Positions 31,805 to 56,834 of a stretch of 64,000 nucleotides of DNA are shown here, one piece after another. Positions within the stretch are counted from its first letter, which is position 1. Each line of letters starts with the position of its first letter. The position numbers were made by a program, and so were the translations under genes. Origin of the DNA: Myxococcota bacterium (lineage in GTDB: Bacteria > Myxococcota_A > Polyangia > Polyangiales > Houyiibacteriaceae). The stretch is from contig JBCCEK010000002.1 of assembly GCA_039030295.1 (NCBI GenBank), forward strand, positions 3,978 to 67,977, written 5' to 3'. Under the pieces are notes generated by a model. It made no database searches. It saw nothing but the letters and a program-made list of their open reading frames with translations, and was not told where the DNA came from.

Positions 31805-31896
31805 GATCGCCTCCTCCTACGGGTGCTCCCTGCAGCCAGCGTGCCAACGGCGACGGGTACGCTTCTTGCTGCTGGCTGTTGAGGCAAAGCCGAACC

Positions 31897-33243
31897 ATGG
31901 CGATCAAGATTCGAAAAGGCCTCGATATCCCCTTGGCCGGAAGACCTGCGCAGCAAATCGAGCCGGCCAACCCGGTGGGTTGGGTTGGGGTCGTCGCCGC
32001 GGACTACCGGGGACTGCAAGCGAAGGTCGCGGTCGAGGTCGGCGAACATGTGCAACTGGGCCAGCCCTTGCTCTGCGACCGGTTCCGTCCCGAGATCGTG
32101 TTTACCGCCCCGGGTGCGGGCGAGGTGGTCGCCGTCCATCGCGGTTCACGCCGGTCGCTGCAGACGGTCGTCGTGCGTCTCGAAGGGAAGTCCGAGCGAA
32201 CTTTCGCCTCGTACGACCGTGGCGGGCTGATGCAGATCGATCGCGAAGCCGTTCGTCGACAAATGCTCGCGTCAGGACTGTGGCCGTCCCTTCGTACGCG
32301 ACCCTTCAGCACGATCCCCGACCCGATGAGTGTCCCGCATTCGATCTTCGTGACGGCGATCGATACCAACCCACTTGCCGCCGACCCCGAAGTGGTGATC
32401 CGAGAGCGTTCGGACGCGTTCTCGGACGGCGTATCCGTGATGACGCGGTTGACCGATGGACCGGTCTACGTGTGCCACCGAGATGGCGCCAACCTTGGCC
32501 TGCCGAAACACGACTCCGTCAAGGCCGTGGGTTTCGCTGGGCCGCACCCCGCCGGCTTGCCCGGCACGCACGTACACTACCTCGACCCTGTCGACGAGAC
32601 CAAGGTCGTCTGGCATCTCCAGTACCAGGACGTCATTGCGATCGGCGCCTTGTTCACCACAGGCCGCATCGACACCGAGCGTGTCGTGTCCCTCGGCGGG
32701 CCCGTCGTTCGAAACCCACGATTGGTACGAACGAGGTTGGGCGCGAGCACCGAGGATCTCTTGGCCGGAGAGCTCGAACCCGTCGAATGTCGCGTGATCT
32801 CCGGTTCGATCCTGGGGGGCAGGCGGGCGGCCGGGCATGCCAGGTACCTCGGTCCACGCGACCTCCAGGTCACCGTTCTGCACGAGGACCGTTCGCGTCA
32901 CTTTCTGGATTGGCTCGCCCCGGGTTTCGGCAAGTACTCCGCTATCCAAGCGTTTGCCTCGAGCGTGACAAGACGGCGGGAGTTCGCCCTCACGACATCG
33001 CAGCACGGAAGCCCGAGAGCGATGGTGCCGATCGGAAACTTCGAGAAGGTCATGCCCCTCGACATTCTTCCCGCGCCGCTGCTCAAAGCACTCATCGTTG
33101 GCGACACCGAGTCTGCGCGTGCACTCGGTTGCCTCGAGCTCGACGAAGAAGACCTGGCCCTGTGCTCGTTCGTCTGCTGCAGCAAGTACGAATACGGCCC
33201 CTATCTTCGACAGACCCTCAGCGCGATTGCGGAGGCTCGGTGA
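31897..33243 (+). CDS. nqrA: Na+-translocating NADH:quinone oxidoreductase subunit A
   Basis: Start at [17 protein letters not shown] (canonical NqrA N-terminus). First gene of the nqrABCDEF order. Confidence 0.88.
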
Positions 33244-34457
33244 TGCGGCCACTGAGGAAGTTGCTCGACAAGCTTGAACCGCACTTCGCAAAGGGCGGGA
33301 GGCTGCAAGGGTATCAGGCCATCTACGAGATGGTCGACAACCTCTTCTATTCGCCGCCAGACGTCGCGCGTCATGCCCCGCACGCCCGCGACGCGATCGA
33401 TCTCAAACGCGTCATGGGACTCGTGGTCGTGGCCGTCGTGCCGTGCGCGATCGTCGGTATGTGGGACACCGGGTATCAAGCGAATCTCGCCCTTGAGGAG
33501 CTTCAGCTGAGCGAGCCCGCAGGTTGGCGAGGACACCTCATGGCAACCTTGGGCATCGCCGGTGACCCGAGCAGCGTCGGCGCCAATCTCCTCCATGGTT
33601 CGCTGTATCTACTCCCCATCTACATCGTGACCCTGCTCGCTGGAGGCCTTTGGGAAGTCTTGTTCGCAGGTGTTCGCAACCACGAGATCAACGAAGGCTT
33701 CTTCGTTACGTCCATCCTCTACGTTCTCATTCTTCCCGCCACGACTCCGCTTTGGCAGGTGGCGCTCGGGATCTCCTTTGGCGTGGTCATCGCGAAGGAG
33801 GTGTTCGGCGGCACGGGAAAGAACTTCATGAACCCAGCCCTTGCCGGGCGAGCGTTCCTATACTTCGCGTATCCGGCAGATATGTCGGGCGACGCTGTTT
33901 GGGTCCCCCCGGTCGATGTCGTCACCGGCGCGACGCCCCTCGGGATAGCTGCGGAGAAGGGCGTCGAGGGCGTTCTTCAGAGTGGGGTGAGCTGGATGGA
34001 TGCGTTCCTTGGTCCGATCCAGGGGTCCCTCGGAGAGACGTCCGCATTGGCCTGTCTGCTCGGAGGCGCGTTCTTGGTGTACAGCGGAATCGCCTCGTGG
34101 CGGATCATCGTCGCCGTCTTCCTCGGGATGGTCGCCACGACCCTGGCGTTCAACGCGATTGGCTCCGACACCAATCCGATGTTCGCGATGCCCTGGTACT
34201 GGCATCTCGTCCTTGGCGGCTTCGCGTTCGGCATGGTGTTCATGGCGACGGACCCCGTTACCGCATGCGCAACGAACGCCGGGCGGTGGGTGTTTGGCTT
34301 CCTGATCGGGTTGATCACGGTCGTCATTCGCGTTGCGAACCCGGCCTTCCCCGAAGGGATCATGCTCGCGATCCTCTTCGCCAACATCTTCGCACCGACG
34401 ATCGACTACTTCGTCATGCAAGCCAACATCCGGCGGAGGGCGCGCCGACATGCCTGA
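33243..34457 (+). CDS. nqrB: Na+-NQR subunit B
   Basis: TGATG junction with nqrA. Polytopic membrane protein. FMN-attachment motif VVTGATPLG. The upstream part of the 884-aa ORF overlaps nqrA in another frame. Confidence 0.88.
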
Positions 34458-35241
34458 AACCGAAACGCCAACCGGGGAGCGTGCCACCACGACCCTGCTC
34501 GTCGCCTTGGGCGTGAGTCTGGTCTGCTCGTCCCTCGTCGCGTCCGCGGCGGTGGTCCTCAAGCCGCGACAGGAAGCGAACCGGCTCCGCGAGGTCCAGC
34601 GGAACATCCTCGAGGTTTCCGGTCTCGAAGGCACCGTACGCCTCGACGAGGAGGGTCTCGAGCGCGTCGAGGTGCGAGTTATCGACTTGCAAGAAGGCAC
34701 CTACGTCGAGGTCGACCCGACGGGTTTCGACCCCGCGGAAGCCGCCAAGGATCCCGAAACGAGCGTCGCGGTCCCACCCGAGATCGACCGAGCTCGTATC
34801 GGTCGGAGGGCCAAGTGGGGCGTTGTCTACCTGGTTCGCTCGGAGAGCGACGAGCTCGAGCGGATCATCCTACCCGTGTCGGGCCAGGGGCTCTGGTCGA
34901 CGATGTACGGTTTCATCGCCCTCGAGATGGACGGCAACACCATCGCTGCAGTCACATTCTACGAGCACGGAGAGACCCCGGGCCTCGGGGATCAGATCGC
35001 AGACCCTTCGTGGCGCTCTCAATGGGAGGGTAAGCAGGTCTTCGACCAAGAAGGCCGAGTCAGGTTCGAGGTCGCCAAGGGGGCCGTCTCCGATAGCGAC
35101 CCGCTGTCGACCCATCGCGTCGACGGGATCTCGGGGGCCACGCTCACCGGGAACGGCGTGACCCATCTGATTCGGTACTGGCTCGGTGACCACGGGTACG
35201 GGCCTTACCTCGATTCCTTTCAGGGAAAGGGCACCCCATGA
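34450..35241 (+). CDS. nqrC: Na+-NQR subunit C
   Basis: Single N-terminal TM. FMN-attachment motif [13 protein letters not shown]. 8-nt overlap with nqrB. Confidence 0.88.
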
Positions 35242-35903
35242 AATCGGAAGCCAGACGCGCCCTCGTCGAGCCGATCGTCGACAACAACCCAGTGACGCTC
35301 CATGTGCTCGGCGTCTGCTCGGCGCTCGCCGTCACCACTGCACTCCTGCCGTCGCTCTACATGGCGCTTGCGCTGACCTCGGTGGCCGCGCTCGCCAACG
35401 CGGCGGTGAGCGCAATTCGTCGACTCCTGCCCAACAGCATTCGGATCATCGTTCAAATGACGATCATCGCGTCACTCGTCATCGTGGTCGAGCAGCTCTT
35501 GAGAGCATTCGCGTACGACATCAGCCGCGAGCTCTCGGTGTTCGTCGGGCTGATCATCACGAACTGCATCGTTCTTGGAAGGACGGAGAGCTTCGCCTCG
35601 AAGAACCCAGTAGGTCTGAGCTTCCTCGACGGGATCGGCAACGGCCTCGGATACAGCGTGGTCTTGATCCTGGTTGCAGGGACGCGAGAACTCCTGGGGG
35701 CGGGAACGCTTCTCGGATTCACGATCCTGCCGACGGTCGCCGAGGGCGGCTGGTACGAGCCCAACGGCATGATGCTTCTGCCGCCGAGCGCGTTCTTCGT
35801 CATCGGATTGATGATCTGGGCGGTCCGGTCGTGGAAGGCCGAGCAGGTGGAGAAGCCCGAATTCAGGATCAGCGAGGTCCATCGGACGGAGGCGCTGCAA
35901 TGA
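35238..35903 (+). CDS. nqrD: Na+-NQR subunit D
   Basis: ATGA overlap with nqr[18 protein letters not shown] and [18 protein letters not shown] motifs. Confidence 0.88.
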
Positions 35904-36508
35904 GTGACTACGTCGAGCTCTTCATCCAGTCGGTGTTCGTCGAGAATCTCGCCCTCTCGTTCTTCCTCGGCATGTGCACCTTCTTGGCGGTTTCCAAGCG
36001 ACTCGAAACCGCTTTCGGCCTCGGTGCCGCGGTCGTCGTCGTCCAGTTGATCACGGTTCCTGCCAACACCTTTCTTTTTGACCGTGTCCTCGCCGAGGGC
36101 GCCCTCAGCTGGGCCGGCTTTCCCGAGGTTGACCTCAGCTTTCTCGGACTAGTCACCTACATCGGTGTGATCGCGGCGATGGTTCAGGTGCTCGAGATGG
36201 TGCTCGATCGGTACTTTCCACGGCTCTTCCACGCACTCGGAATCTACTTGCCTCTGATCACCGTGAACTGTGCGATCCTCGGGGGTACGCTTTTCTCGGT
36301 GGAGCGGGACTACACGATGCCCGAGAGCGTCGTGTACGGGGTGGGCAGCGGGGTCGGTTGGGCCCTGGCGTTGATCGGGCTCGCCGGGATTCGTGAGAAA
36401 CTCAAGTACAGCGATGTCCCCGAGGGCCTCCAGGGCCTCGGCATTGCTTTCATCATCGTCGGCCTGATGTCGCTCGGGTTCATGGCGTTCACCGGGATTC
36501 AACTGTAG
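35900..36508 (+). CDS. nqrE: Na+-NQR subunit E
   Basis: ATGA overlap with nqr[19 protein letters not shown] and [12 protein letters not shown] motifs. Confidence 0.88.
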
Positions 36509-36518
36509 GAGCCGCGCG

Positions 36519-37742
36519 ATGGTCGAGGTAGTTGCCGCTGTCGTCGTCTTCACCGTCATCGTGGTCACCCTGTCCGGCCTGATCCTTCTCGCACGATCGC
36601 GGTTGACCGAAAGCGGCACGGTTGTACTCGTCGTCAACGAGGACCGACGATACGAGGTCGCGACCGGTCGGAAGTTGCTTTCGACTCTCGCCGAGGTAGG
36701 GCTTTATCTACCGGCGGCCTGCGGCGGCAAGGGCACGTGCGGTCAGTGTCGGGTGGCGGTCCTCGAAGGCGGAGGGCCCTTGCTTCCGACGGAGGCGGGA
36801 CTGGTCAGTCCGCGCGAGGCCAACAACCACGTCCGCCTCGGGTGTCAGGTCAGCGTTCGCGAGGACCTGCGCGTGCGAGTCCCGGACGAACTCTTCGGAG
36901 TGCGTTCGTGGGAGTGCACGGTGCGCTCCACGCGTGGCGTCAGCACCTACATCAAGGAGCTCGTGTTCGAGCTACCGACCGGAGAGGAGATGCCATTTAA
37001 GGCAGGTGGATACGTGCAAGTCGAGTGCCCTCGGTACCGCGCGAGTTTCGCGGACTTCGACATCGAGCCGGAGTATCGGGTCGAATGGGACCGCCGAAAC
37101 CTGTGGCGCCTCGAGGCTGTGGCGACGGAGCCTACGACGCGCGCCTATTCGATGGCGAACTACCCGGGCGAAAAGGGAATCATCATGCTCGACGTGGGGA
37201 TCGCGACGCCGCCACCCGGAGCTGACGACCGAGTGCCGCCCGGCGTCGTGTCGTCGTACCTATTCAGCCTGCGCGATGGCGACCGAGTCGTCCTTACCGG
37301 TCCGTACGGTGAGTTCTTCGCCAAGGATACCGAGCGGGAGATGGTGTTCATTGGCGGAGGGACGGGGATGGCCCCGCTTCGTTCGCACATTCTGGATCAA
37401 CTCAAGCGCATCGGAACCAACCGTCGTATTTCGTTCTGGTTTGGTGTTCGGTCGGTCCGGGATCTCTTCTACGTTGACGAGTTCGAAGCGTTGGCCGCCG
37501 AGCACGACAACTTCTCGTATACCGTCTCGCTATCAGAACCAGACCCCAACGACGACTGGACGGGGGCGGTCGGCTTCATCCATCAAGTCGCATTCGATCG
37601 CTACCTTAGCGACCATCCGGCGCCTGAGGATTGTGAGTACTACTTGTGTGGGCCGCCGTTGATGATCGCGGCGGTCACCGAGATGCTTCGCGACCTCGGG
37701 GTCAGCGAAGACGACATCATGTTCGACGATTTCGGAGGTTGA
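36519..37742 (+). CDS. nqrF: Na+-NQR subunit F
   Basis: N-terminal TM. Plant-type 2Fe-2S motif CGGKGTCGQCRV...C. FAD motif RAYSMAN. NADH motif GGGTGMAPLRS. Confidence 0.9.
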   Translation: MVEVVAAVVVFTVIVVTLSGLILLARSRLTESGTVVLVVNEDRRYEVATGRKLLSTLAEVGLYLPAACGGKGTCGQCRVAVLEGGGPLLPTEAGLVSPREANNHVRLGCQVSVREDLRVRVPDELFGVRSWECTVRSTRGVSTYIKELVFELPTGEEMPFKAGGYVQVECPRYRASFADFDIEPEYRVEWDRRNLWRLEAVATEPTTRAYSMANYPGEKGIIMLDVGIATPPPGADDRVPPGVVSSYLFSLRDGDRVVLTGPYGEFFAKDTEREMVFIGGGTGMAPLRSHILDQLKRIGTNRRISFWFGVRSVRDLFYVDEFEALAAEHDNFSYTVSLSEPDPNDDWTGAVGFIHQVAFDRYLSDHPAPEDCEYYLCGPPLMIAAVTEMLRDLGVSEDDIMFDDFGG

Positions 37743-46155: not shown

Positions 46156-46449
46156 TCAGCGATCGGGTGGGTGGACCGCGTCGGCCGCTCGCCGATTCGG
46201 ACCCTCCGGGGGGACCGAAGGACGAAAAGTTGCCCTCCGAAGGTCCACAACCACTACCAACAGGAACAACGCGAATGATAGCGTACCGATGACTTGTCCG
46301 ATCGACATCGCCATCATTACGGGCACCCACCCTTGGTCGAACAGCGACCAACTCATCAACGCGAGCGCGACGAGCCCGAGAGCGCAGGCCGCCGACAGCA
46401 GTCGACGACGCGACGCCTCGTTCAGAAACCTCTTGAGCTTCGGGTTCAA
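46156..46449 (-). CDS. Hypothetical small membrane protein (about 97 aa, two predicted TM helices)
   Basis: A TTG start overlapping the tetrahaem stop (TTGA) would give LNPKLKRFLNEASRRRLLSAACALGLVALALMSW...VPVMMAMSIGQVIGTLSFALFLLVVVVDL. Start and existence are uncertain. Confidence 0.35.
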   Translation of the reverse strand: MNPKLKRFLNEASRRRLLSAACALGLVALALMSWSLFDQGWVPVMMAMSIGQVIGTLSFALFLLVVVVDLRRATFRPSVPPEGPNRRAADAVHPPDR

Positions 46450-47114
46450 TGGTCCTCCCACAAGGGCGCGATGGGCTTGAGCGTCGCCTCCGCGGCTTCT
46501 TGCGCGGGCTTGCTGAAGGGATGTGCGTACCCATGACACCCGACGCTTGCACAGCTGGTCCTGCCGGTGCGCACATCGTCCAGCACCCCCTGGTGATCCG
46601 GGACCTCGCTCCAGATTCGGCCGCTGGTGCTGTGGCACTGCATGCAGTTGTCGTTTCGAAACGGGCGGGCGATGTGGACCCGTGGGAGCGACTCGTGGGC
46701 GTCTTCCCACATGAAGTCAGTCAGAAAGTAGTATACGTGCCCCATGCCACCAAGCTTGGTGAGTGCGTAGCCGTACATCCCGTAGTCTTTGTGGCAAACG
46801 TAGCAACTCCTGTCCCCAAACATCTTGGTCCGCGAGTGGATCGCCGCGAGCCCGAGGCTGTCGGGATCGTTAGCGTCCTCGATGTGGAGATCCATCGTGT
46901 GGCAGCTTCCACAGAACTCCTGTCGTTCGGTGGCACGGAGTCCTTCGACGTTGCCGATGAGCGCGGTCAGAATCGGCAAGACGCCCAGGCCCAGCCCGAG
47001 GATGACCTTGACCTTGGCATCCGGCGGAGGGCGGTACACCAGGTAGAGCACCATGATCAGCGCCGCAAGAACAGCGCAGGTCAGTGCAAGCCAGGAGAGC
47101 GGCGATACGTGCAT
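46446..47114 (-). CDS. Membrane-anchored tetrahaem c-type cytochrome, NapC/NirT/CymA-like (putative quinol dehydrogenase)
   Basis: Two N-terminal hydrophobic segments. FCGSCHTM, CYVCHKD, CMQCH, and a fourth expanded site CASVGCHGYAH (CX4CH) where NapC has CxxCHxGxxH. Confidence 0.75.
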   Translation of the reverse strand: MHVSPLSWLALTCAVLAALIMVLYLVYRPPPDAKVKVILGLGLGVLPILTALIGNVEGLRATERQEFCGSCHTMDLHIEDANDPDSLGLAAIHSRTKMFGDRSCYVCHKDYGMYGYALTKLGGMGHVYYFLTDFMWEDAHESLPRVHIARPFRNDNCMQCHSTSGRIWSEVPDHQGVLDDVRTGRTSCASVGCHGYAHPFSKPAQEAAEATLKPIAPLWEDH

Positions 47115-48434
47115 GGGGGATCGTGCTCGCCACGACTAAAGTCGAGCCAGCAGCGAAACCATGCTCCAACTCCGGGGAACCGCGCAAGCACGAAGATCGC
47201 CCGAACTGCCAAACGGGCGGCCCCGGTTCTTGCCGCACTTCTTGCGCTAGCAGCGGCCGGCATGGCGAGTTCCGCTGGGGCCCAACCACATCGCCTCGGC
47301 GCCGAGCTGTGGGGCCAGGCCAACCCGAACTACGGACTGATCGTGCTGCAAGGGTCGACCCGCAAGTACCCGTACATCGACGCCGAGGCGCTCGTTTGGG
47401 GAGGTGTGGGCGCTTCGCAAACGGGGTTTGACGACGACGCCACATTCGAAGCCCTGGTAGTCACCGTCCGAGTGCGCGACCCGCGCGGCGTGAGCGATAC
47501 GAGGTTGGGACGCTTCATCTTGTCGACGGGAGCGGTGCGCGCCGTGCAGATCGACGGAGGCCATCTCGTTCTCCGGGCGCCGTCGAAAACACACGTCGAG
47601 GTTTTCGGGGGTGTCCCCGTCGAGGGCGATGCCGAGGGACGTGGTTCCGACTGGATGGTTGGGGGTCGCGTGTCACAGGGACTTGGAAAACGAGGCGTGA
47701 TCGGCGGTTCGTACTACAACCGATTCAACGCCGGTCAGCGCTCGGACGAGGAAGTCGGGGCTGACTTCGCACTTCGCGTCGCGCATTGGCTCGACATGGC
47801 GGCGAAGTTCTCTTGGGAGATCATCAACCCCGGCATCGCCGAGGTGCTGGCAACGGTCTCGGCCCAGACCAAGAACAAGGCGATTCGCGGAGAGGTCTAC
47901 GCGACGAAACGTTCGCCGACACGCATGCTTCAGCAGACTTCCCTGTTCACCGTTTTGGGCGACCCCGAGACTCTTGCGGTTGGCGCGAATCTTCGTTGGC
48001 GTGCGGCCCCTCGACTGGACCTTTGGCTCGACGCCGCTCTTCGGGACGCCCAGGAAGAGCTTGGCTGGAGTGGATACCTCCGCGGCGTTCTCCGAACCGA
48101 CGATGAAGGAAAGGGAAGCATCCTCGGCGAGCTTCGTCGCCAGTCGGTGACGATCGCGAGATGGACGGGAATCCGTTTGGCGGCAGTGATCCCACTGTAC
48201 GAGGATCGCGACACGACCGTTGGGTTGATGCCTGAGTTCGAAGTGATCATTCCGGACGACCCGCAGGAGGGTCAGGGCAAAGTATGGCCTTGGGGGCGGC
48301 TTGCCGTTCGTTGGCGGCCGAGCCCGAGCTGGGCGATCGCCGCGGCTTGCGAAGCAAGTGCCAACCAGGTCGAGCGGTACGAGGTGCGCGCCTTGGCGCG
48401 TGTGGCCTATCAGGGAAAGTGGCCGAAGCAGTGA
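47109..48434 (+). CDS. Predicted outer-membrane beta-barrel (porin-like partner of the multihaem cytochromes); start codon unresolved
   Basis: Signal-like KRAAPVLAALLALAAAGMASSAGAQP. Repeated amphipathic strand-like segments (ALVVTVRV, ADFALRVAH, LAVGANLRWRA, WSGYLRGVLR, GRLAVRWRP, YEVRALARVAYQGKW). The stop overlaps the next gene (GTGA). The only in-frame canonical start upstream of the signal peptide is GTG 47109, which abuts the divergent gene's ATG. Confidence 0.55.
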   Translation: MHGGSCSPRLKSSQQRNHAPTPGNRASTKIARTAKRAAPVLAALLALAAAGMASSAGAQPHRLGAELWGQANPNYGLIVLQGSTRKYPYIDAEALVWGGVGASQTGFDDDATFEALVVTVRVRDPRGVSDTRLGRFILSTGAVRAVQIDGGHLVLRAPSKTHVEVFGGVPVEGDAEGRGSDWMVGGRVSQGLGKRGVIGGSYYNRFNAGQRSDEEVGADFALRVAHWLDMAAKFSWEIINPGIAEVLATVSAQTKNKAIRGEVYATKRSPTRMLQQTSLFTVLGDPETLAVGANLRWRAAPRLDLWLDAALRDAQEELGWSGYLRGVLRTDDEGKGSILGELRRQSVTIARWTGIRLAAVIPLYEDRDTTVGLMPEFEVIIPDDPQEGQGKVWPWGRLAVRWRPSPSWAIAAACEASANQVERYEVRALARVAYQGKWPKQ

Positions 48435-49489
48435 ACCGGGTTCTGGTAGCGCTGGTGACCCCGGGCCTGGTGCTCCTTGCCGTCGGGTGCGCGAAGATCC
48501 TCGGCCTGGAGCAGGAGCCAAACGACGGCCCCTTCGAGCACCGGGCGCATGTGCTCGAGGGCATCAACTGCCTCGAATGCCACGCCGGCATTGAAGACGC
48601 CGGACAGGACGGCCCCCTTCATTTACCGAGCACTGCCGACTGCGTCACATGCCACCGAGATCCCCACGATCCCAACCCGTGCTCGAACTGCCATGGGCGC
48701 GCACGAACTCGAAGCGCAGCCCTCACCGCCAAGGAACACATGCGCTTCTCGCATGCTCAGCACGCCGAAGAGGGGGCGGGCGACTGCATTCGATGCCACG
48801 TCAACGTCACCATCGACGACGACTACGTGCGGACCAAGCATCCGACCTGCTTCGGCTGTCATGCACACAAGGGCCAATGGGACACGCGCGACTGCGACGG
48901 TTGCCATGTCGAGGTTCAGGCGGAACTGGGAATGCCGGAAAGCCACGTCATCCACGACGGCGACTTTCTGCGGGAACATGGTCTGCAAGCCGCCGCTCAA
49001 GCCGACCTGTGCACCAGTTGCCATACCCAACGGGAATGCGCCGAGTGTCACGGTGTGACCGTCGCCGCGATTCCGTCGCGGCTCGCGTTCGACGAGCCCC
49101 TTCGGCCTTCGATGCATCGCGCCAACTTCATAGCGGTTCACGACATGCAGGCGGCGGCCGATCCGGGCGCATGCGTGGTGTGCCATAGCCCATTGTTCTG
49201 CGTCGACTGCCACGAGCGCGTAGGCATCGCCGGGTTCGACGCCCCTAGTGGGAACCCCCATCCGCCGGGTTGGTCCGGTCCTCCTGGAACCTCGAATACC
49301 CACGGGCCGGCGGCGCGCCTCGACCCACTGAACTGCGCAACCTGCCATGGAGGTGCCGGAGAAATGCTCTGCGTCGGGTGCCACCGGGTCGGTGGCCCGG
49401 GAGGCAACCCACACCCTCCGAACTTCGAGAGCCGCCTCGATATCGTCAACGATCTGCCGTGCCGCCTCTGTCACCTGGGTGGTCTATGA
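48431..49489 (+). CDS. 13-haem c-type cytochrome lipoprotein
   Basis: GTG start gives MNRVLVALVTPGLVLLAVGC (lipobox). 13 CxxCH motifs counted in 352 aa. Confidence 0.85.
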   Translation: MNRVLVALVTPGLVLLAVGCAKILGLEQEPNDGPFEHRAHVLEGINCLECHAGIEDAGQDGPLHLPSTADCVTCHRDPHDPNPCSNCHGRARTRSAALTAKEHMRFSHAQHAEEGAGDCIRCHVNVTIDDDYVRTKHPTCFGCHAHKGQWDTRDCDGCHVEVQAELGMPESHVIHDGDFLREHGLQAAAQADLCTSCHTQRECAECHGVTVAAIPSRLAFDEPLRPSMHRANFIAVHDMQAAADPGACVVCHSPLFCVDCHERVGIAGFDAPSGNPHPPGWSGPPGTSNTHGPAARLDPLNCATCHGGAGEMLCVGCHRVGGPGGNPHPPNFESRLDIVNDLPCRLCHLGGL

Positions 49490-51012
49490 GCCGCGCCCTG
49501 ATCGGTGTGGTCGTGTTGATCGCGCTGGGGGTCGCGGGCTGGCTTCTGTTCCAACGTCTGACCACGAACATCGCCACAGTCGTGGAGGAGCGGGCCGCAC
49601 CGCCTCCTCGCGAGGTCACAGCCAGCTGGCCTTCGGATCGCTTCTCGCCGGGGCATTCGGAGCACGTGCTCAACCAGCGACTCGAGTGCAACAACTGCCA
49701 CGACCCAAACAAGGATGGGTTCGAGGGCGTGGATATGGGGGTCTGTACCTCTTGCCACGAATCGCAAGCCGCCATCTCACACATGGGAAGCGACCACACA
49801 CCGACCTCCTGCTTCTCGTGTCATTCGTTCAAGTTCGACAGCCCCATCGAAGGCCCTTGGGATTGCGTCCGGTGCCACGGCCCCTTCGATGCCGCGACCC
49901 ACGAAGGGCTCGCGATGCACAACAGCGTCCCTTGCGCGAACTGTCACCACCCGCATGAACCCATCGAGGAAACCCTGAGCGACTGCACCGGTTGCCACGA
50001 AGGAATCGACCTTCACCACGGGCGTCCGGAGTTGAGTGGGACATGCGCCGACTGCCACGCCGGACATGCGATTGCATCCGAAACGACCGCCTGTATCGAG
50101 TGCCACGCGGACGGGGAGCCGAGAGTCGCGTTGACGGCGACGTTCGACAGCGGCCACGAGTCCTGCGCGAACTGCCACCAGGCTCATCAGTTCTCGAAAG
50201 CAGGCGCCCTGCCCTGCGCCACGTGCCATGCCGACACGGTCGTCCTCGCGGCCAATGAAGCGAAGGCCCACGACGATTGTATGAACTGCCACAACCCGCA
50301 TGCGGTTCGCGGCGCGGGGGATCGGGCGTGCACGCGGTGTCACGCGGCGGTCGCGTCGACGCACCCACCCACCGAGGGAAAGACCTGTATCTCTTGCCAC
50401 CAGCCGCACCCGAAGCGGGCGGCGCAACTGTCGCTCCGCTGCACCGACTGCCACGAAGAAGCGGACTCGGAGCACTCGTTTCACGCATCTAGGACGGCCT
50501 GCATCGACTGCCACCAACCTCACGCGTTCGCGCTGGGAAGCCTCGCCGAGCGCGACCTGTGTGTCCGATGCCACGTCGAGCAGATTCGGTTGACCCGGCT
50601 GAATCAGGGGCATGCGAGCTGCGAATCGTGCCACTCAGGAACGGCACACGAGCCGGGTCCCGTCGCAGCGTGCGCGACCTGTCACGAAGAGGTGCTCGAA
50701 GCGAGCCCGGAAGGCCACCGGGAGTGCGCGTCATGCCACGAGCCGCACGGCGGGAACGTCGTCGCTCAAGAACGTTGCGCCAGCTGTCATGCTCTTGCCG
50801 ACCTGCCCGGCCTCCACCGAATTCCGGGCGAACCCGACGGCCCAGGTCACACGGATTGCAACGCATGTCACGACGTGCACGCCACACGGGCCCGAGCGGA
50901 CCGCGCCAGCTGCATGACCTGCCACGACGACATCGCCGACCATGAACCCGAGGCCAAGCGGTGCACCGGATGCCATACGTTCATCCACGGAAGAGGACGG
51001 CAGGCCCTGTGA
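49486..51012 (+). CDS. 23-haem c-type cytochrome with an N-terminal membrane anchor
   Basis: ATGA overlap with the 13-haem gene. MSRALIGVVVLIALGVAGWLLF anchor. 23 CxxCH motifs counted in 508 aa, many as CxxCHxPH repeats. Confidence 0.85.
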   Translation: MSRALIGVVVLIALGVAGWLLFQRLTTNIATVVEERAAPPPREVTASWPSDRFSPGHSEHVLNQRLECNNCHDPNKDGFEGVDMGVCTSCHESQAAISHMGSDHTPTSCFSCHSFKFDSPIEGPWDCVRCHGPFDAATHEGLAMHNSVPCANCHHPHEPIEETLSDCTGCHEGIDLHHGRPELSGTCADCHAGHAIASETTACIECHADGEPRVALTATFDSGHESCANCHQAHQFSKAGALPCATCHADTVVLAANEAKAHDDCMNCHNPHAVRGAGDRACTRCHAAVASTHPPTEGKTCISCHQPHPKRAAQLSLRCTDCHEEADSEHSFHASRTACIDCHQPHAFALGSLAERDLCVRCHVEQIRLTRLNQGHASCESCHSGTAHEPGPVAACATCHEEVLEASPEGHRECASCHEPHGGNVVAQERCASCHALADLPGLHRIPGEPDGPGHTDCNACHDVHATRARADRASCMTCHDDIADHEPEAKRCTGCHTFIHGRGRQAL

Positions 51013-51031
51013 GTCCGCGCGCATCTCGAAC

Positions 51032-52093
51032 CTAGAACGCGTCGACTCGTCCGTTGATGTGCGGCGCGTCGGCCGTGAGCCGAGTCCCCTCCGGGTTGAT
51101 CCCGCGGTGGCAGCCATTGCACGCGACGATCGCGTGGCCCGCGGGCGGGTTCATATGGCATGCGTTGCAATCGAGCTCTAGATCGGCCTCGTCCCAGGCG
51201 ACCTCCGGGGTCGTCCCGCCGCGAACGTGGCAGGTCGTCGCACAGGCCTGCGTGTCGAAGTCGTACGTCGCATCAGGTCCCCACGCCGGCTGAAAAACGA
51301 CGTCGACCGTCCCGTCTCCATGACTGCCCTCGAGCGACGAGAAGTCTTCGCCGAAATGACAGGAGGCGCACCCGAGCGGGTTGGGCAAGTTCGCCGATGG
51401 CTGCACATGCGAAGGATGTGCACCGGCGAAAGGCGCACCAGGGAAGTAGCACTGGTCGCGCGGCGGATAGGGGCGGAGCCCGTCCCCATGACACGTGCCG
51501 CAGGCCAGCACACCTCCAGGAAGATCATGGCAGGCGGTGCAATCCGTCGCACCAGGCGCAAAGGTCGTGACGTCAGCCACAGGCGCCGGGGAACCGGCGT
51601 GACACAGGCCGCACGCGTCGCCGCGACTTGGGTCGACGATCGGGAGCCAGTCGGTGTCGCGCAAGTAGGTGCCGTGCCATGTGTCAGTCCGCGGGTCCAT
51701 CCATTGCCCCGGATGCGATCCGCGGCGCGCCGGCCAGGCTCCGTCCAGGATCCACTCGGTGAGCTCGTCGGTTTGTTCGTCGTCGAGCAGGTCGGCGTGG
51801 TCGGCCAGGTCGAGCACGGCGAGGATCGGCGCCGTCGTGTCGGCCGGGAGCGTCGCCGGTTGGCCGTCGGGGTCTGGAATGCACCGGATCGTCGCGAGAT
51901 AGTCCTCGACCGAGTAGCCGGCCGATGGGTCTTCTCCACCGTGACACTCGAGACACGCCTCCTCGAGAATCGGATCGATCGCGGCAAAGGCGAGCGGAGG
52001 ATCGGAGCCTTGTCGGGCTTCGTCGCAGGCCACGACCACCAGAACCGACATCGACAGCGCTGCCACCGAGCGCAGAGGCCGCGTCAACGTCAT
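51032..52093 (-). CDS. Multihaem c-type cytochrome lipoprotein (7 CxxCH plus 1 CX3CH)
   Basis: Start MTLTRPLRSVAALSMSVLVVVAC (lipobox) overlaps the upstream stop (ATGA). CLECH, CGLCH, CTACH, CGTCH, CASCH, CATTCH, CNACH, CNGCH. Confidence 0.8.
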   Translation of the reverse strand: MTLTRPLRSVAALSMSVLVVVACDEARQGSDPPLAFAAIDPILEEACLECHGGEDPSAGYSVEDYLATIRCIPDPDGQPATLPADTTAPILAVLDLADHADLLDDEQTDELTEWILDGAWPARRGSHPGQWMDPRTDTWHGTYLRDTDWLPIVDPSRGDACGLCHAGSPAPVADVTTFAPGATDCTACHDLPGGVLACGTCHGDGLRPYPPRDQCYFPGAPFAGAHPSHVQPSANLPNPLGCASCHFGEDFSSLEGSHGDGTVDVVFQPAWGPDATYDFDTQACATTCHVRGGTTPEVAWDEADLELDCNACHMNPPAGHAIVACNGCHRGINPEGTRLTADAPHINGRVDAF

Positions 52094-54159
52094 GGCGCCG
52101 GCGTGTTTGGAAGGAACTCGCCGTGGCACTCGCCGCATACGTTGGTGAACGCGAGAGGTTGGTCAGGCCGACCACCTTCCCACAAGGTCACTGTCATGCG
52201 ATGGCTTGCGATATCGTTCCAGTAGTATTGCACCGTCGGGGGGCCGCCGATGACGTCCCGCAGCGCGGGAACCGCCGCACCTGACCTGGCCGTGGGAACG
52301 AGGTGACACTCCGAACAAACGTACGGCCCGAAGATCTCGACGAGGCTTTCGTGTCCCGCAAAACCGGTTACCTCGGCGACGTGGCCCCCGAGTGGGTAGA
52401 GCTCAGGATTCATCGTAGGACTGTGGCAGGTGGTGCAAACGGTGTTGGGGTCGTCGGTGTCGTCGCTTGCGGCGAGGTCTTCGGCGTTCACGTGAGGGTT
52501 GTGGCACCCAGCGCAGGTCATCAGTCGTTCCGGGTTTCGGTAGTGCCGAGACCGCAGATGATCCGAGTACTGCTGGTAGTCGGCCTTGGGATCGCCCGAC
52601 TCAAAGAACGCATCCGGAGGACCGCTGACGCGCGACGTGTACCCGAGGGCAAAGTCGGCTCGCCGGATCCCCGGAGGAGGCATCGCGTTGTCCGCTGACA
52701 GCGGGAGTCCCGTTTCGCCCGCACCGATCCCGAGGGGTCGGGAGTGACAGCTTCCGCACACCATCGCCTGGCGACCCGGAGTCAGCGAGCCGAGCGCCAC
52801 GATGGAGCCACCGCGGGGTGTCAGCTCCAGGTGGTCTGACCCCGGACCGTGGCAAGCCTCGCAACCTGTATTGATCAACTCGGGCCGCCCATCCCCGTCG
52901 TAGTCGAACGCGCCTTCGGGATCGACGACAGCGCTCGCCGACCAACCCTCGCCGTCACTGCCTTCGAGCCGATAGCCGGTGAAGTGACAGCCGGCGCAGT
53001 TGTTGTCGAACGATTCGGCGTCGTCCGGTTGCTGCAACGTCCCGCCCTCGAAGTCGTACCAGAGGTCGGATCGGTAGTCCCGCCAGGGCCAATCGTCTGG
53101 ATCGGGGTTCGAGAAATCCCCTGCGTAGTTGTACTGCAGCGGCAGCACGTAGTAGCTGAGACTCCCGTTCGCGTTCGTACGACGCGTCAGATACTGCTGC
53201 CGTCCGAGGGCGCCCCCATAGGTAAGAACCACGTCGTAGCGGACGGTCGTGTCACCGTCCATCTCCACGTAATACGCTCCGATCGCACCAAGGGGCTTGT
53301 CCTCGTCGCGCCGCAGGTTGATCGTGAAGGCGACGTCGCCTGCCGGCGGCGCATCGTCTACGCGGCAGTTGGAGGAGTCGGAAGAGGCTTCGTCACAATC
53401 GTAGTAGTAGAGCGTCGTCGCGTTGGTATCGAAGACCGCGAGGGCATCGTCGAATTCGGGCCACCACACGATGTCCTGCAAGATCGAACGAACGCCAGGC
53501 ACCTGAAGCCCGACGTTGTGCGCCGTGCGGGTCGTGCTGTGCAAGCCATGACACCCCATGCAGGTGCTAGAGCCCACGTACGTGGCGGCTGCGCTCGGGC
53601 GAGGGCTCACCCGGATGTCCATCTCCATCCCGATCAGGGACTCGGTCGAAAAAGCGGCCCTACTCCCGTCGCCCCCGATGAAGTGGCCGTCGTCGTCACT
53701 CGCGGGTACCCATACGACGAAGTGATTCCCCTCCGGAAGAGTCTCGAAACGGTAGACACCTTCGGTGTCGACCATCGCCTGATCGTAACCCGCTCCTTGG
53801 GTGTCGATCAGATCCTCAATCGGCTCATCGACTTCGGACATCGCCGTCTCTTCGGGCGAGAGAAACAGATCGATCGGCGTCTGCGAGAGCGTCTCGACGT
53901 CGGCTGCGGGCACCAGGTACACCGTGCCGCTCGGAACCACGACACCGTTCGGCTCGAGGATCCGCCCGACCAGCCCGAATGGCTCCGGCGTGATGCCACC
54001 ATCGGCGGGCGGGCCCGGGGGACCAGGCTCGCCGGGCGGTCCTTGGGGCCCTTGGGGTCCAACATCCCCTTTGCAAGCGCCCACTGCCAAAACGCAAAGC
54101 GCAAGCAGGTGAAGCCAGGGCTGGTCGCGCAGGCACACCATCGCGCTGATGATAGGCAT
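52090..54159 (-). CDS. Octahaem c-type cytochrome lipoprotein with a collagen-like tract and an N-terminal beta-sandwich-like domain
   Basis: ATG at 54159 preceded by GGAAGGAG. Lipobox LAVGAC. GPQGPQGPPGEPGPPGPP tract. GRILEPNGVVVPSGTVYLVP (carboxypeptidase-regulatory-like). 8 CxxCH including CEACHGPGSDH. Confidence 0.8.
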   Translation of the reverse strand: MPIISAMVCLRDQPWLHLLALCVLAVGACKGDVGPQGPQGPPGEPGPPGPPADGGITPEPFGLVGRILEPNGVVVPSGTVYLVPAADVETLSQTPIDLFLSPEETAMSEVDEPIEDLIDTQGAGYDQAMVDTEGVYRFETLPEGNHFVVWVPASDDDGHFIGGDGSRAAFSTESLIGMEMDIRVSPRPSAAATYVGSSTCMGCHGLHSTTRTAHNVGLQVPGVRSILQDIVWWPEFDDALAVFDTNATTLYYYDCDEASSDSSNCRVDDAPPAGDVAFTINLRRDEDKPLGAIGAYYVEMDGDTTVRYDVVLTYGGALGRQQYLTRRTNANGSLSYYVLPLQYNYAGDFSNPDPDDWPWRDYRSDLWYDFEGGTLQQPDDAESFDNNCAGCHFTGYRLEGSDGEGWSASAVVDPEGAFDYDGDGRPELINTGCEACHGPGSDHLELTPRGGSIVALGSLTPGRQAMVCGSCHSRPLGIGAGETGLPLSADNAMPPPGIRRADFALGYTSRVSGPPDAFFESGDPKADYQQYSDHLRSRHYRNPERLMTCAGCHNPHVNAEDLAASDDTDDPNTVCTTCHSPTMNPELYPLGGHVAEVTGFAGHESLVEIFGPYVCSECHLVPTARSGAAVPALRDVIGGPPTVQYYWNDIASHRMTVTLWEGGRPDQPLAFTNVCGECHGEFLPNTPAP
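54007..54060 (-). repeat. Collagen-like (G-X-Y)x6 coding tract
   Basis: GPQ GPQ GPP GEP GPP GPP directly after the lipobox of the octahaem protein. Confidence 0.85.
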
Positions 54160-54236
54160 CCTCGACGCTCCTTCCAACGAAGAAGTGTCGAGGATGCTGT
54201 TTCGACGGTGCTGCAGCGTGACTCTCTGTGTTCAGG

Positions 54237-56834
54237 CTACGGACATGTCGCGGGTCGTTGGGGTACCGTGACTACCCTGGGGGTGCCCCCGAGCAGACAG
54301 GTCGAGTCGAAGAGCAGCTGCTCGATGTACCCACCGTTGTGGATGTATCCAGCCGGGTCTTTGTCGGCTACGACGAAGTTGTAGGCCGCGGTGAGCATGT
54401 CGAAGTCGAAGTCACGGTATCGGTTGGGGTAGTTCGCGCCCTGCCCGTTGTCGTAGAACCAGTACGGATAGCTGTCGCCGTTGTAGAAGACGGGGGAATC
54501 GTTGGGCAGCCCCCCTCCGTCGGCGTAGGCGACGATCGCCGCCAGCAGGTCTTCCTTGAGGACGTTGATCTCCCGGAAGTTGTCGCCGGGCGACCCGCTG
54601 AGGTCCTCGAAGTTCTGGCCGCTGTGGCAAAGGTTGCAGTCTTGGACCTTCGGAAGGAAGGTGTGGATCCCCTTGTCGGCGACATCGTCCGAAGAGTTCA
54701 GGTGGCATCCGATACAGTCGACGAGCGTGCGTCCGTCCTGAGTGTGCAACCCGACGAACGTGTTCTGACCTCGGTACACATTGCCGCCGTACTCGTATCC
54801 GCCTTGAACGTCGGTGCCGAACAGAGTCGCGGCGGCGGCGTAGTAGTGAATGTTGATGAAGTCGTAGGACGGATAGTTATTGGGCATCTGCACGACGCCG
54901 TTGTCGACGGCGCTGTCGACTTGTACCGTTGAGCTCCGACCTTGGTGACAGCCCATGCAAAGGTTGCTCGCATTGTCGAAGCTCGCGGTGTCTCCCGATG
55001 GAAACACAATGCTCGCGAGCGCCGGGTTCGCGCCCAGGTCGTCGTACCGGGTCTCCGAGTTGGAGAACAAGTCGAAGTTGTTGTGGCACGCCCAGCAGTC
55101 CACCGTCGTCGTCGGGACATGCCCGGTCGTCGGGTCGCCCATCGCGTACTCCGCGAAACCTGGCGTACTGTGGCACCTCGAGCAGAAGCTGGGAATGCCG
55201 CTGGGCGTGTACCCGTCGGGCTCGTAATCCTCGTCCCAATGGCGGAATGGATCGGTTGCCGCGGCAGCATGGGCGCTGAGCTGCCACTGCTGCGTCTTCG
55301 AAGCTCCTCCGATGTCGTCCCCGTCGATGGTGAGGTCGCCCCGACCGAGCACGGCCACGGAGGTGGAACCGCCCAGGTCTTGAATCGAATCGTAGACGAT
55401 CTGCTGGAGATAGGTCCCGTTGTGGATGTACCCAGCGGGATCTCTCTGGACGACCTGGTAGTTGTAGGCCGCAGGCAACAGCGTCGCATCGAAGTCTTCG
55501 TACCGGTCATTGGTGCCCTCGACGAAGTAGTACGGAAAGCTGTTCTTGTACTCAATCGGTACACCGATGATGTCGGCGGCATACGTTTGGATCGACGAGT
55601 AGAGCTCGGGCAGCATCTCTTCCAGATTGTCGAAGCTCTGCATCGGCGTGCCGCCAAGAGTCTCGAAGCTGGTGCCGCCGTGACAATTGATGCAGCTTTC
55701 CACGCTCGGAATCCAGGTGTGCATCTCCGGAGGCGAGCCCTGGGCGTTGGTCATGTGACACCCTACGCACGTCGAGAACGACTCGGGATGCGAACCAAAC
55801 GTATCGCGAGGCCTGTACTCCTCGTTCGGGTACTCGAACCCGCCGTAGGTCTCGCTTCCGAAGAAGGTCGCGGCAGCCGCATAGTAGTGAATGTTGATGA
55901 ACCTGTAGGGGCCTTCTCCGTCGTCGGAATCGATCTCGTCCTGCACGTCCTTGCCGGACTCGCGACCCTGGTGGCACACCATGCAGATGTTGCTTGGACT
56001 GTAGAGCGACACCTGATCCGTAGACGGGAAGGTCACGGGTTCGAGCGCGCCGTTGGGAAGCCCAAACTTCGCCAGGTTCGAATAGATCGTAGGGAAGTTC
56101 TGGTGACAGTTGACGCAGTCGAGGCCAAGAGGCAACGGAGCCGAGTTGACGTTGTCGCTCGTCGTTACGTACTCGAGGAAGCCCACCTCGCCACCGACGA
56201 AGTCATTGCCCTGCGGCCCGTGACACTTCGCGCATCGACTCGGGACTTCGCCATCTTCGTCCCAGTGGCGCCAAGCCTCGGCGGTGAGGTCGCCATGACC
56301 GCTACCGGCCCACTCCGTTCGGATGGGGGTTTCGGTGAAGGTATAGCCTTCGGCCTGTTCGGCGGAGTAGGTTTCGGTGCCACCATCGTCCACCGCCGCG
56401 AGGAACTTGAGCACGGTAGTCGAGTCTATCGTGATCGGTCCCGTGTACTCCATGCCCTGCACCGCAATGACGTTGCCCTCGTCGTCTCGCTCGAGAACTG
56501 GAGTCAGGTCATCGGTGTAGTAGATCGTGGCACTCTCGTCGTCCGCCGTGAGCGTCACTTCGACCGTTGGTGCAAACGTCGATCCGGGAGGCGCCGCCGT
56601 AACAGCCGCTGGCGCACCGCCGGTACCACCATCTCCACCGCTGCCCCCCGTACCGCCTCCGCCCATGCCGCCGTCACCGCCGGATCCGCCGCCGCCAGTT
56701 GCGCCGTCACCGCCGCTTCCGCCACCACCGGTACCACCGGTCCCGTCACCATCATCGCAGCCAATCGACGCAACACTCGCCCCTAGGATAGTGATCAGAC
56801 CCAGACGCCACCACAAAGACCAGATCGCTCTCAT
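54237..56834 (-). CDS. Decahaem c-type cytochrome lipoprotein built from two tandem pentahaem modules, with a Gly-rich linker and an Ig-like N-terminal domain
   Basis: Lipobox ASIGC followed by about 48 aa of GGxGG repeats. ATIYYTDD...YTGPITIDSTTVLKF (chitobiase-C-terminal-like). 10 CxxCH. Both halves share FRHWDED...C..CH, FINIHYYAAAAT, DPAGYIHNG. Confidence 0.85.
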   Translation of the reverse strand: MRAIWSLWWRLGLITILGASVASIGCDDGDGTGGTGGGGSGGDGATGGGGSGGDGGMGGGGTGGSGGDGGTGGAPAAVTAAPPGSTFAPTVEVTLTADDESATIYYTDDLTPVLERDDEGNVIAVQGMEYTGPITIDSTTVLKFLAAVDDGGTETYSAEQAEGYTFTETPIRTEWAGSGHGDLTAEAWRHWDEDGEVPSRCAKCHGPQGNDFVGGEVGFLEYVTTSDNVNSAPLPLGLDCVNCHQNFPTIYSNLAKFGLPNGALEPVTFPSTDQVSLYSPSNICMVCHQGRESGKDVQDEIDSDDGEGPYRFINIHYYAAAATFFGSETYGGFEYPNEEYRPRDTFGSHPESFSTCVGCHMTNAQGSPPEMHTWIPSVESCINCHGGTSFETLGGTPMQSFDNLEEMLPELYSSIQTYAADIIGVPIEYKNSFPYYFVEGTNDRYEDFDATLLPAAYNYQVVQRDPAGYIHNGTYLQQIVYDSIQDLGGSTSVAVLGRGDLTIDGDDIGGASKTQQWQLSAHAAAATDPFRHWDEDYEPDGYTPSGIPSFCSRCHSTPGFAEYAMGDPTTGHVPTTTVDCWACHNNFDLFSNSETRYDDLGANPALASIVFPSGDTASFDNASNLCMGCHQGRSSTVQVDSAVDNGVVQMPNNYPSYDFINIHYYAAAATLFGTDVQGGYEYGGNVYRGQNTFVGLHTQDGRTLVDCIGCHLNSSDDVADKGIHTFLPKVQDCNLCHSGQNFEDLSGSPGDNFREINVLKEDLLAAIVAYADGGGLPNDSPVFYNGDSYPYWFYDNGQGANYPNRYRDFDFDMLTAAYNFVVADKDPAGYIHNGGYIEQLLFDSTCLLGGTPRVVTVPQRPATCP
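54285..56312 (-). repeat. Intragenic tandem duplication: two ~315-335-aa pentahaem modules (residues ~175-489 and ~517-850)
   Basis: Collinear shared motifs in both halves: (W/F)RHWDED, five CxxCH each, (F)INIHYYAAAAT(F/L)FG, LLPAAYNY/LTAAYNF, DPAGYIHNG(T/G)Y. Confidence 0.8.
56613..56756 (-). repeat. Low-complexity Gly-rich coding repeat (GGTGG/GGSGGDG units)
   Basis: Residues 27-74 of the decahaem protein: DGDGTGGTGGGGSGGDGATGGGGSGGDGGMGGGGTGGSGGDGGTGG. Confidence 0.9.

Follow-up and report, generated by a model that had tools for sequence, protein, structure and literature searches.

Within a 64,000-nucleotide stretch of contig JBCCEK010000002.1 from a Myxococcota bacterium (assembly GCA_039030295.1), referred to here as the window, eight genes at positions 46156–56834 (10.7 kb) form a cluster in which six gene products are packed with haem-binding motifs. 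It is likely that this cluster encodes a porin-cytochrome conduit which would connect the quinone pool of the inner membrane with the cell surface, and we infer its function, its direction and the localisation of its components from sequence. The gene content, the conservation of the haem motifs, the fold prediction for an outer-membrane barrel and the co-conservation of the genes across related loci are direct observations. An envelope-spanning conduit of the porin-cytochrome type had been proposed in an initial annotation of this DNA and the proposal stands: the barrel is co-conserved with the cytochromes, no protein of the cluster reaches the curated NCBIfam cut-off of any reductase, MtrA/DmsE or OmcA/MtrC family, and no CxxCK motif is present in any of them.

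Organisation of the cluster

The cluster holds 66 haem motifs, 64 of the CxxCH type and two variants. In a six-frame translation, 64 CxxCH motifs fall within the cluster compared to one across the other 53 kb of the window, an enrichment far above chance. Re-reading of the sequence bore out all of the open reading frames and haem counts given in the initial annotation, and the myxobacterial lineage and parts list that it had proposed were also correct. The features are listed in Table 1, in which the cytochromes are given the short names used below.

Table 1. Gene products predicted for the multihaem cytochrome cluster, with positions in the window.
Gene product	Position	Strand	Features
Small membrane protein with two transmembrane helices, ~98 residues	46156..46449	-	Two hydrophobic helices around a short loop; basic termini
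NapC/NirT-family membrane tetrahaem protein, 222 residues	46446..47114	-	3 CxxCH + 1 Cx4CH; two N-terminal hydrophobic helices
Outer-membrane beta-barrel, 441 residues including signal peptide	47109..48434	+	No haem motif; 22 predicted strands
c13, 13-haem lipoprotein cytochrome, 352 residues	48431..49489	+	13 CxxCH; lipobox LAVGC
c23, 23-haem cytochrome, 508 residues	49486..51012	+	23 CxxCH; N-terminal hydrophobic helix
c8b, lipoprotein cytochrome, proposed outer-face partner	51032..52138	-	7 CxxCH + 1 Cx3CH; lipobox VVAC
c8, 8-haem lipoprotein cytochrome, 695 residues, clade-specific accessory	52090..54177	-	8 CxxCH; lipobox VGAC
c10, 10-haem lipoprotein cytochrome, 865 residues, clade-specific accessory	54237..56834	-	10 CxxCH; Gly-rich linker; lipobox SIGC

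The barrel, c13 and c23 genes form a plus-strand trio, with the start of c13 overlapping the barrel stop (GTGA) and the start of c23 overlapping the c13 stop (ATGA). A minus-strand trio (c10, c8 and c8b) converges on it, the stops of c23 and c8b lying 19 nt apart; both the overlaps and this spacing, which had been noted previously, are real. Lipoboxes are present on four cytochromes of the cluster. At the other end of the plus-strand trio, the barrel start (GTG 47109) abuts the start of the NapC-like gene (ATG 47114) head-to-head as GTGCAT with zero intergenic bases, and the promoter and 5' leader of each gene must therefore lie inside the coding sequence of the other. The same arrangement is found in the close relatives L001, L002, L004 and L006. 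Scans of the window for promoters and terminators gave counts at or below those expected from shuffled sequence. The sole alternative in-frame start of the barrel gene, ATG 47262, would delete the signal peptide. Two starts are corrected here: that of the small membrane protein is likeliest TTG 46449, which is preceded by GGGAGGA and overlaps the NapC-like stop, and that of c8b is probably Met16 (52093), giving, from the coordinates, an ATGA overlap with the c8 stop.

Co-conservation of the barrel and cytochrome genes

A total of 232 related loci were gathered from genome and metagenome assemblies; some contigs are represented in more than one locus and the counts are slightly redundant. In 171 of the 174 loci having room for it, the c13 gene lies directly downstream of the barrel gene on the same strand. 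The survey of genomes for co-occurrence that had been suggested with the initial annotation thus finds barrel and cytochromes tightly co-conserved, and on this count a reading of the barrel as a generic porin was rejected. The pairing holds down to approximately 20–25% barrel identity (L017, L099, L102 and L103), where the partner still possesses 13 CxxCH motifs and a lipobox. A set of 69 loci extends 4 kb or further to both sides. All 69 contain c13, and a c8b-like gene occurs in 67, c23 in 59, one of the NapC type in 58 and that of the small membrane protein in 47, with c8 and c10 occurring in six and four, respectively.

The positions of these genes are not fixed. The NapC-like gene and its small partner are found divergent upstream, co-directional upstream or downstream of the core, the two adjoining each other in all three gene orders, while the c8b-like gene is found on either side of the core and on strands that differ between loci. 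In 15 loci, L103 among them, it immediately follows c13, so that the genes run barrel, c13, c8b-like. The genes flanking the cluster in the window encode unrelated products (a P-type ATPase, a CBS protein, a YwiC-like protein and an AAA_33 protein) and are not conserved among the loci compared. Given that the genes of the module are shuffled while the flanks are not conserved, the linkage is taken to be functional rather than inherited synteny, and a gene set kept in shuffled positions is the pattern that selection for a functional module would yield.

The barrel and c13 are also joined to differing partners in different lineages. In the distant, Myxococcia-type locus L103 (metagenome contig JADMIO010848953.1, 6628–15237), the gene products run from a 10-haem lipoprotein and a monohaem cytochrome c through the barrel, c13 and a c8b-like protein to a NapC-like protein of 463 residues. 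The first of these belongs clearly to MtrC/OmcA (PF22113, 116 bits; OmcA-like_N, 29 bits), and the c8b-like lipoprotein, with 11+2 haems, shares 29% identity with c8b of the window (E 3e-21). Downstream of these are genes for a multicopper oxidase, NnrS, a hemerythrin and a rubrerythrin. In L018 (626–4629), another distant relative, an NrfC-type 4Fe-4S protein, an NrfD-type membrane protein and a monohaem cytochrome c are encoded upstream of the barrel in replacement of the NapC-type gene. Such joining of one barrel and c13 pair to quinol modules and surface cytochromes that differ by lineage is as expected of an outer-membrane conduit.

The barrel family spans the Myxococcota, with a few matches bearing other labels. 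It was found in Polyangiaceae, Kofleriaceae, Sandaracinaceae, metagenome-assembled genomes (MAGs) labelled Haliangium or Labilithrix, Nannocystineae, Archangiaceae, Myxococcaceae and Anaeromyxobacteraceae, and the MAGs that hold the closest relatives of the window cluster (63–84% barrel identity) bear the labels Polyangiales, Sandaracinaceae or Myxococcales. The cultured Minicystis rosea DSM 24000 (L059; CP016211.1, about 827.9–833.8 kb) possesses a six-gene version on one strand, in the order c8b-like, barrel, c13 (13 haems), c23-like (26 haems), NapC-like and small membrane protein. Upstream of it, long open reading frames with 8 and 10 CxxCH motifs overlap on opposite strands, and one of the two may not be a real gene. 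Paralogous copies of the whole cluster, two or three in number, were also seen in some Polyangia genomes, with L040 and L041 on the same contig ~180 kb apart and L023, L026 and L055 in the same MAG.

The outer-membrane barrel

The AlphaFold2 model of the barrel, built from a 46-sequence alignment, has a mean predicted local distance difference test score (pLDDT) of 79.4 and a predicted template modelling score (pTM) of 0.67, with a signal helix at residues 27–50 and 22 strands over residues 61–438. A Foldseek search of the PDB with this model returned outer-membrane barrels exclusively, the top matches being ushers, AlgE and OprD with template modelling (TM) scores of 0.3–0.5. The outer-membrane barrel of ~440 residues predicted in the initial annotation is borne out by this topology and by the fold search. 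MtrB was absent from the top 50 Foldseek matches.

At the level of sequence, no match to the barrel was found in Pfam, NCBIfam or the PDB, and the MtrB/PioB models PF11854 and TIGR03509 were not among the matches of any scan. A profile of the barrel family searched against PDB sequences found no outer-membrane protein, its single match being an unrelated enzyme (E 0.05), and among 41 family members scanned against Pfam none matched the MtrB/PioB-type or any other porin model, with one weak match to LptD (E 0.0021). The family itself comprises 609 cluster representatives at E ≤ 1e-3, and in a word-indexed search the distant-barrel profile A5 matched seven proteins.

The 13-haem partner of the barrel

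Of 88 c13 orthologues, 84 have 13 CxxCH motifs and 81 or more have a lipobox. The lipidated Cys, all 13 motifs and a further 14 His residues are invariant in the alignment. Such invariant extra His residues are consistent with bis-His ligation and therefore speak for a wire that transfers electrons and not for a site of catalysis. With ~27 residues per haem, c13 is denser than MtrA. It matched generic c7/c3/paired-CXXCH models alone in Pfam and NCBIfam, with no match to the DmsE/MtrA model TIGR03508, and against PDB sequences it matched ActA-type pentahaem and c7-like chains alone (6lod, E 5e-8), which we read as common c7-like modules. Being dense in haem and the only universal partner of the barrel, c13 is proposed as the wire through it.

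The long, putatively anchored cytochrome c23

The CxxCH motifs of c23 are spaced 16–27 residues apart in a highly regular di-haem repeat, with 22 residues per haem and 29 His residues outside the motifs, and it is proposed that all or nearly all of its haems are bis-His ligated. Its matches in Pfam are the generic models Cytochrome_C7, Cytochrom_c3_2 and Paired_CXXCH. Orthologues have 23–27 haems, and 60 of 68 have an N-terminal hydrophobic segment. We propose c23 as a periplasm-spanning protein and a candidate static haem wire.

The poly-c7 nanowire GSU1996 has 12 haems and is roughly 12 nm long; by analogy, the 23 haems of c23 would span about 20 nm. The two share tandem short haem-binding repeats, bis-His ligation and a very low protein-to-haem ratio, whereas c23 has approximately twice the number of haems (23–27 in the family), a membrane anchor and a fixed genetic coupling to the barrel and cytochrome pair.

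Over 215 loci, c23 was found alone in 124 and the monohaem cytochrome c, which is of a periplasmic type, alone in 18, with both together in none. This mutual exclusivity suggests that they are alternative, interchangeable periplasmic carriers, and it hints that a fixed wire may have replaced a diffusible carrier or vice versa.

The predicted inner-membrane module

The NapC-like protein matches Pfam PF03264 with 34.1 bits (cut-off 24.1) over positions 5–169 of the 174 in the profile, and with an N-terminal membrane helix and four haem sites it has the features of the NapC/NirT family. It is predicted to be a quinol dehydrogenase or quinone reductase. It scores below the NrfH and TorC equivalog cut-offs of NCBIfam, with a weak resemblance to NrfH. 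Like the NapC/NirT quinol dehydrogenases CymA and NrfH, it is anchored to the membrane at its N-terminus, with the tetrahaem domain coming after the anchor; ImcH also shares structural features with this family. It differs from the family in having an additional N-terminal hydrophobic helix, in its fourth haem site, a conserved Cx4CH (the pattern of three CxxCH and one Cx4CH is kept in 73 of 74 orthologues), and in its constant pairing with a small protein of two transmembrane helices. The small protein of the window has zero matches in Pfam and NCBIfam and no His motifs.

The lipoprotein cytochromes c8b, c8 and c10

Of the three lipoproteins on the minus strand, c8b contains a CxxxxCH/CxxCH domain (TIGR01904, 33.6 bits, cut-off 27). 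In c8, a short collagen-like GPQGPQGPPGEPGPPGPP tract lies immediately after the lipobox, and all full-length orthologues have eight haems. Its best PDB sequence matches are weak (OcwA 6qvm, E 3.5e-3; 6r2q_A, E 7.7e-3), and the carboxypeptidase-regulatory-like domain previously suggested for it was not detected in Pfam at E < 0.01.

The presence of an Ig-like domain in c10, also predicted earlier, is supported by CHB_HEX_C_1 (34 bits) and Fn3_assoc (28.6 bits) matches in Pfam. Behind the linker and this CHB_HEX_C/Fn3_assoc region, c10 is a tandem duplication of a pentahaem module of ~340 residues, the halves being 38% identical (E 2e-69) and both ending in a conserved helical segment (AAYN..V..DPAGYIHNG.Y). 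Its similarity to MtrC/OmcA is weak: PF22113 gives 34.2 bits for the whole protein with no single domain passing, TIGR03507 gives 40.6 bits against a cut-off of 209, and hhalign against OmcA-like relatives gives a weak match with 45% probability over 52 columns. Matches of c23, c8 and c10 to the DmsE/MtrA model were 30–46 bits against a cut-off of 192. Overall, searches of PDB sequences with c8b, c8, c10, c23 and the NapC-like protein gave marginal matches only (c7/c3 domains, STC, OcwA, NrfA and NrfH).

Other genes of the window

Outside of the cluster, the window encodes at 85–9351 a 1653-residue PFOR-like fusion (POR_N, POR, PFOR_II, Fer4 and TPP_enzyme_C domains) followed by Rnf-type genes (RnfC-like, RnfD and an Rnf-Nqr subunit), which suggests a ferredoxin-linked, possibly anaerobic, energy metabolism of the host. 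A second Rnf/Nqr-type cluster (31803–37742) ends in an NqrF-like protein (Fer2, FAD_binding_6 and NAD_binding_1) and is probably an Na+-NQR. Together these complexes fit a facultatively anaerobic energy metabolism without showing such. The window has no composition break, a tRNA scan of it found none, and no sign of recent mobility was seen beyond the non-conserved flanks. Unrelated to the cluster are an HMG-CoA reductase with its N-terminal domain (10574–12145) and a DUF481 protein (23513–24553).

Relation to known porin-cytochrome systems

The Pcc family is described as having porins with 18–22 trans-membrane motifs, periplasmic cytochromes with 5–14 haems and outer cytochromes often with atypical motifs, namely CX3-15CH (Shi et al., 2014; PMC4245776). 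The barrel of the window, with 22 strands and an adjacent gene for a 13-haem cytochrome, lies within these ranges, as does the c8b lipoprotein with its Cx3CH motif (CX3-4CH motifs being found in such lipoproteins). The Pcc "Group IV" of Anaeromyxobacter consists of two genes, for a porin and a 12-haem cytochrome (PMC4245776). In two loci from MAGs of the Anaeromyxobacteraceae (L126 and L168), this barrel family and a c13 homologue with 12 CxxCH motifs occur as a two-gene unit, with no further CxxCH-bearing open reading frame of at least 80 residues within 8 kb. Relatives of the Myxococcia type are ordered barrel, inner cytochrome, outer cytochrome, mirroring ombB-omaB-omcB. Because of this Pcc-range architecture, the two-gene 12-haem form and the ombB-omaB-omcB-like order, the triad of barrel, c13 and c8b-like protein is probably a divergent Myxococcota branch of Pcc (of the OmbB-OmaB-OmcB type), the likeness to Pcc being drawn from its published description. 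The cluster differs from Pcc in that its c13 is a predicted lipoprotein whereas the Pcc counterpart is a soluble periplasmic protein. In addition, Polyangia clusters have a putative anchored wire of 23–27 haems and a NapC-type quinol module with its two-helix partner, and the clade of the window has tethered 8- and 10-haem lipoproteins.

With MtrCAB of Shewanella (PDB 6R2Q), the proposed conduit would share a barrel-sheathed haem wire, a surface multihaem lipoprotein and a quinol dehydrogenase of the NapC/NirT type (CymA in Shewanella), and the related cluster L103 holds a true decahaem of the MtrC/OmcA type. By sequence, however, the cluster falls outside the MtrB/PioB and MtrA/DmsE families. 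Its barrel has 22 strands compared to 26 and no MtrB/PioB signal, c13 has 13 haems compared to 10 and no DmsE/MtrA match, and the outer cytochromes of the window are not demonstrable MtrC/OmcA members. While small soluble carriers bridge the periplasm in MtrCAB, an anchored 23-haem protein would do so here.

The PCC3 clusters of iron oxidisers, which are themselves predicted only, have a long periplasmic multihaem cytochrome with a median of 21 haems (He et al., 2017; PMC5566968). PCC3 may be regarded as an architectural analogue, as a single cluster combines a porin, an outer multihaem cytochrome, a very long haem-dense one that is proposed to cross the periplasm, and a redox protein dedicated to the inner membrane. 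Compared by architecture, it differs in its extracellular cytochromes (median 34 haems), in its taxa (Alpha-, Beta- and Gammaproteobacteria) and in its inner-membrane component, a putative di-haem b protein with five transmembrane helices where the window has a NapC/NirT tetrahaem. No protein of that type, with two WX3HX13H motifs, is present in the cluster, the membrane proteins of which are the NapC-like and small two-helix proteins only.

The initial annotation had suggested that the cluster may be an undescribed type of conduit. For the core this is not supported, given that the strands, haem number and atypical motifs are within Pcc ranges and that the form found in Anaeromyxobacteraceae matches Pcc Group IV. 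The elaboration found in Polyangia (the c23 wire, the NapC-like protein with its partner, and the c8 and c10 decorations) does appear to be undescribed in the literature searched, which gave no description of the cluster in Polyangia and only incidental FeGenie matches in a Polyangiaceae MAG. Similar predicted porin-cytochrome clusters are being reported in other phyla (PCC3/PCC4, and those of peat Acidobacteriota and Verrucomicrobiota; PMC5566968; 2026 peat preprint). The principle is not new; what is distinctive is its conservation throughout the phylum, in a group not regarded as electroactive, the putative anchored wire of 23–27 haems and the dedicated module of NapC-like and two-helix proteins.

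Proposed path of electrons and alternative explanations

From the above we infer the placement of the cytochromes, the direction of flow and the substrate as follows. The NapC/NirT-type tetrahaem protein and its two-helix partner would exchange electrons with quinol at the inner membrane, and the membrane-anchored c23 would carry them over the periplasm as a fixed wire and not as a diffusing shuttle. In the lumen of the 22-strand barrel, c13 would pass them through the outer membrane to a c8b-type lipoprotein cytochrome, which may accept them on the outer face. In the clade of the window, c8 and c10 could extend the contact surface on their flexible or collagen-like tethers and hand electrons to an extracellular acceptor, the likeliest being Fe(III)/Mn(IV) minerals or humic material, with reverse flow also possible. 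The outward direction is preferred because of the precedent of Anaeromyxobacter, in which the Pcc cytochrome Adeh_3392 was increased under Mn(IV) reduction (PMC4245776), and because the window contains genes of the PFOR-like, Rnf and Nqr types.

A number of points weigh against this conduit. In sequence, the barrel resembles neither MtrB nor any entry of Pfam or the PDB, and the probable link to Pcc Group IV was drawn from the published description of that group. The AlphaFold2 model of c13 (42-sequence alignment; pLDDT 57.6, pTM 0.37) was too poor for a fold search, and its placement within the barrel lumen is suggested by its universality and haem density; as a predicted lipoprotein it is also unlike the soluble periplasmic MtrA and OmaB. 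The N-terminal anchor of c23 may be a cleaved signal peptide, and it is lipobox-like in some lineages such as Minicystis, which makes anchoring in the inner membrane uncertain. More generally, the localisation of the proteins is predicted from patterns of lipoboxes and hydrophobic segments. The direction of flow cannot be read from sequence, and the cluster members of Polyangia are known from their genes. Cultured Polyangia are mostly aerobes and are not known to respire minerals.

If the conduit is accepted, the chief alternative concerns its direction. Electrons may flow inward, with Fe(II), Mn(II), reduced humics, a cathode or a neighbouring cell as the extracellular donor, and reach the quinone pool by way of the NapC-type protein. 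Such a route has been proposed for the MtoAB/CymA-type systems and PCC3 of iron oxidisers. NapC/NirT-type proteins accompany Mto clusters and can run both ways, and many cultured carriers of the cluster are aerobic, so that O2 could be the terminal acceptor. A multicopper oxidase is encoded near the L103 cluster, and porin-cytochrome clusters with long periplasmic wires (median 21 haems) have been proposed for Fe(II) oxidisers (PMC5566968). On the other hand, the PFOR-like and Rnf-type complexes of the window weakly suggest a fermentative or anaerobic heterotrophy, no genes for carbon fixation or high-potential carriers (cupredoxin, Cyc2) adjoin the cluster in the window, and the probable relative in Anaeromyxobacter is linked to Mn(IV) reduction. 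None of these points is decisive, and we consider inward flow rather unlikely though worth keeping in mind.

It was also considered whether the barrel is an export or assembly channel that secretes or displays cytochromes, with c23 or c8 and c10, for example, forming extracellular filaments or surface arrays and electrons crossing the outer membrane by other means. Among known structures, 24-strand ushers, which pass folded subunits, come nearest to the barrel model, c23 is a highly regular repeat, and the role of Pcc in cytochrome secretion is still called speculative in a review (PMC12307469). However, the TM scores of these matches are at a level generic for large barrels, and genes for an usher plug, a chaperone or a secretion ATPase are absent from the co-conserved set. 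The strict one-to-one, translationally coupled pairing of the barrel with c13, and the invariant 13 haems of the latter in ~330 residues, are as a sheath and wire would predict, and an export function is considered highly improbable.

A further explanation, a periplasmic respiratory or detoxifying reductase (for nitrite, sulfur compounds, hydroxylamine or metalloids) beside a coincidentally linked substrate porin, draws on a weak NrfH resemblance of the NapC-like protein and a faint similarity of c10 and c8 to NrfA and the NrfA-like OcwA (for c10, Cytochrom_C552 (PF02335) 20.9 bits, under the cut-off of 24.1, and NrfA chains at E 0.02–0.07), but was rejected as having scarcely any chance of being correct given that every such score is under its curated cut-off, that neither CxxCK nor any other catalytic haem motif is present, that c8 and c10 are missing from most clusters while the barrel and c13 are universal, that the co-conserved genes include none for a molybdopterin, sirohaem or other catalytic subunit and that related clusters hold a true MtrC/OmcA-type surface cytochrome. 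By the same curated cut-offs and motifs, none of the cytochromes is recognised as a nitrite, sulfite or hydroxylamine enzyme, a possibility that had been raised with the initial annotation.

Significance for the Myxococcota

Going beyond the conduit itself, we tentatively raise the possibility that Polyangia carry a hard-wired circuit across the whole envelope, in which the anchored 23–27-haem protein would bridge the NapC-type protein to a Pcc-like barrel with its 13-haem plug, replace the diffusible periplasmic cytochrome of related Myxococcia clusters and feed clade-specific tethered surface cytochromes. This would represent a distinct solution to periplasmic electron transfer, and the apparent interchange of c23 with a monohaem cytochrome in sister clusters would offer a natural experiment on fixed versus diffusive transfer across the periplasm. 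The presence of a compact six-gene version in the cultured Minicystis rosea DSM 24000 makes the hypothesis directly testable.

Polyangia are known chiefly as aerobic predators and polymer degraders. If the reading is correct, there would be an unrecognised extracellular redox physiology in myxobacteria, which may take the form of mineral or humic respiration, metal oxidation or a redox attack directed at prey or substrates. A large group that is abundant in the environment, namely the Polyangia together with other Myxococcota living in soils, sludge, peat and marine sediments, would then possess a machinery for extracellular electron transfer that lies outside their accepted physiology, and the Myxococcota would join the organisms considered in the cycling of iron, manganese and humic material.

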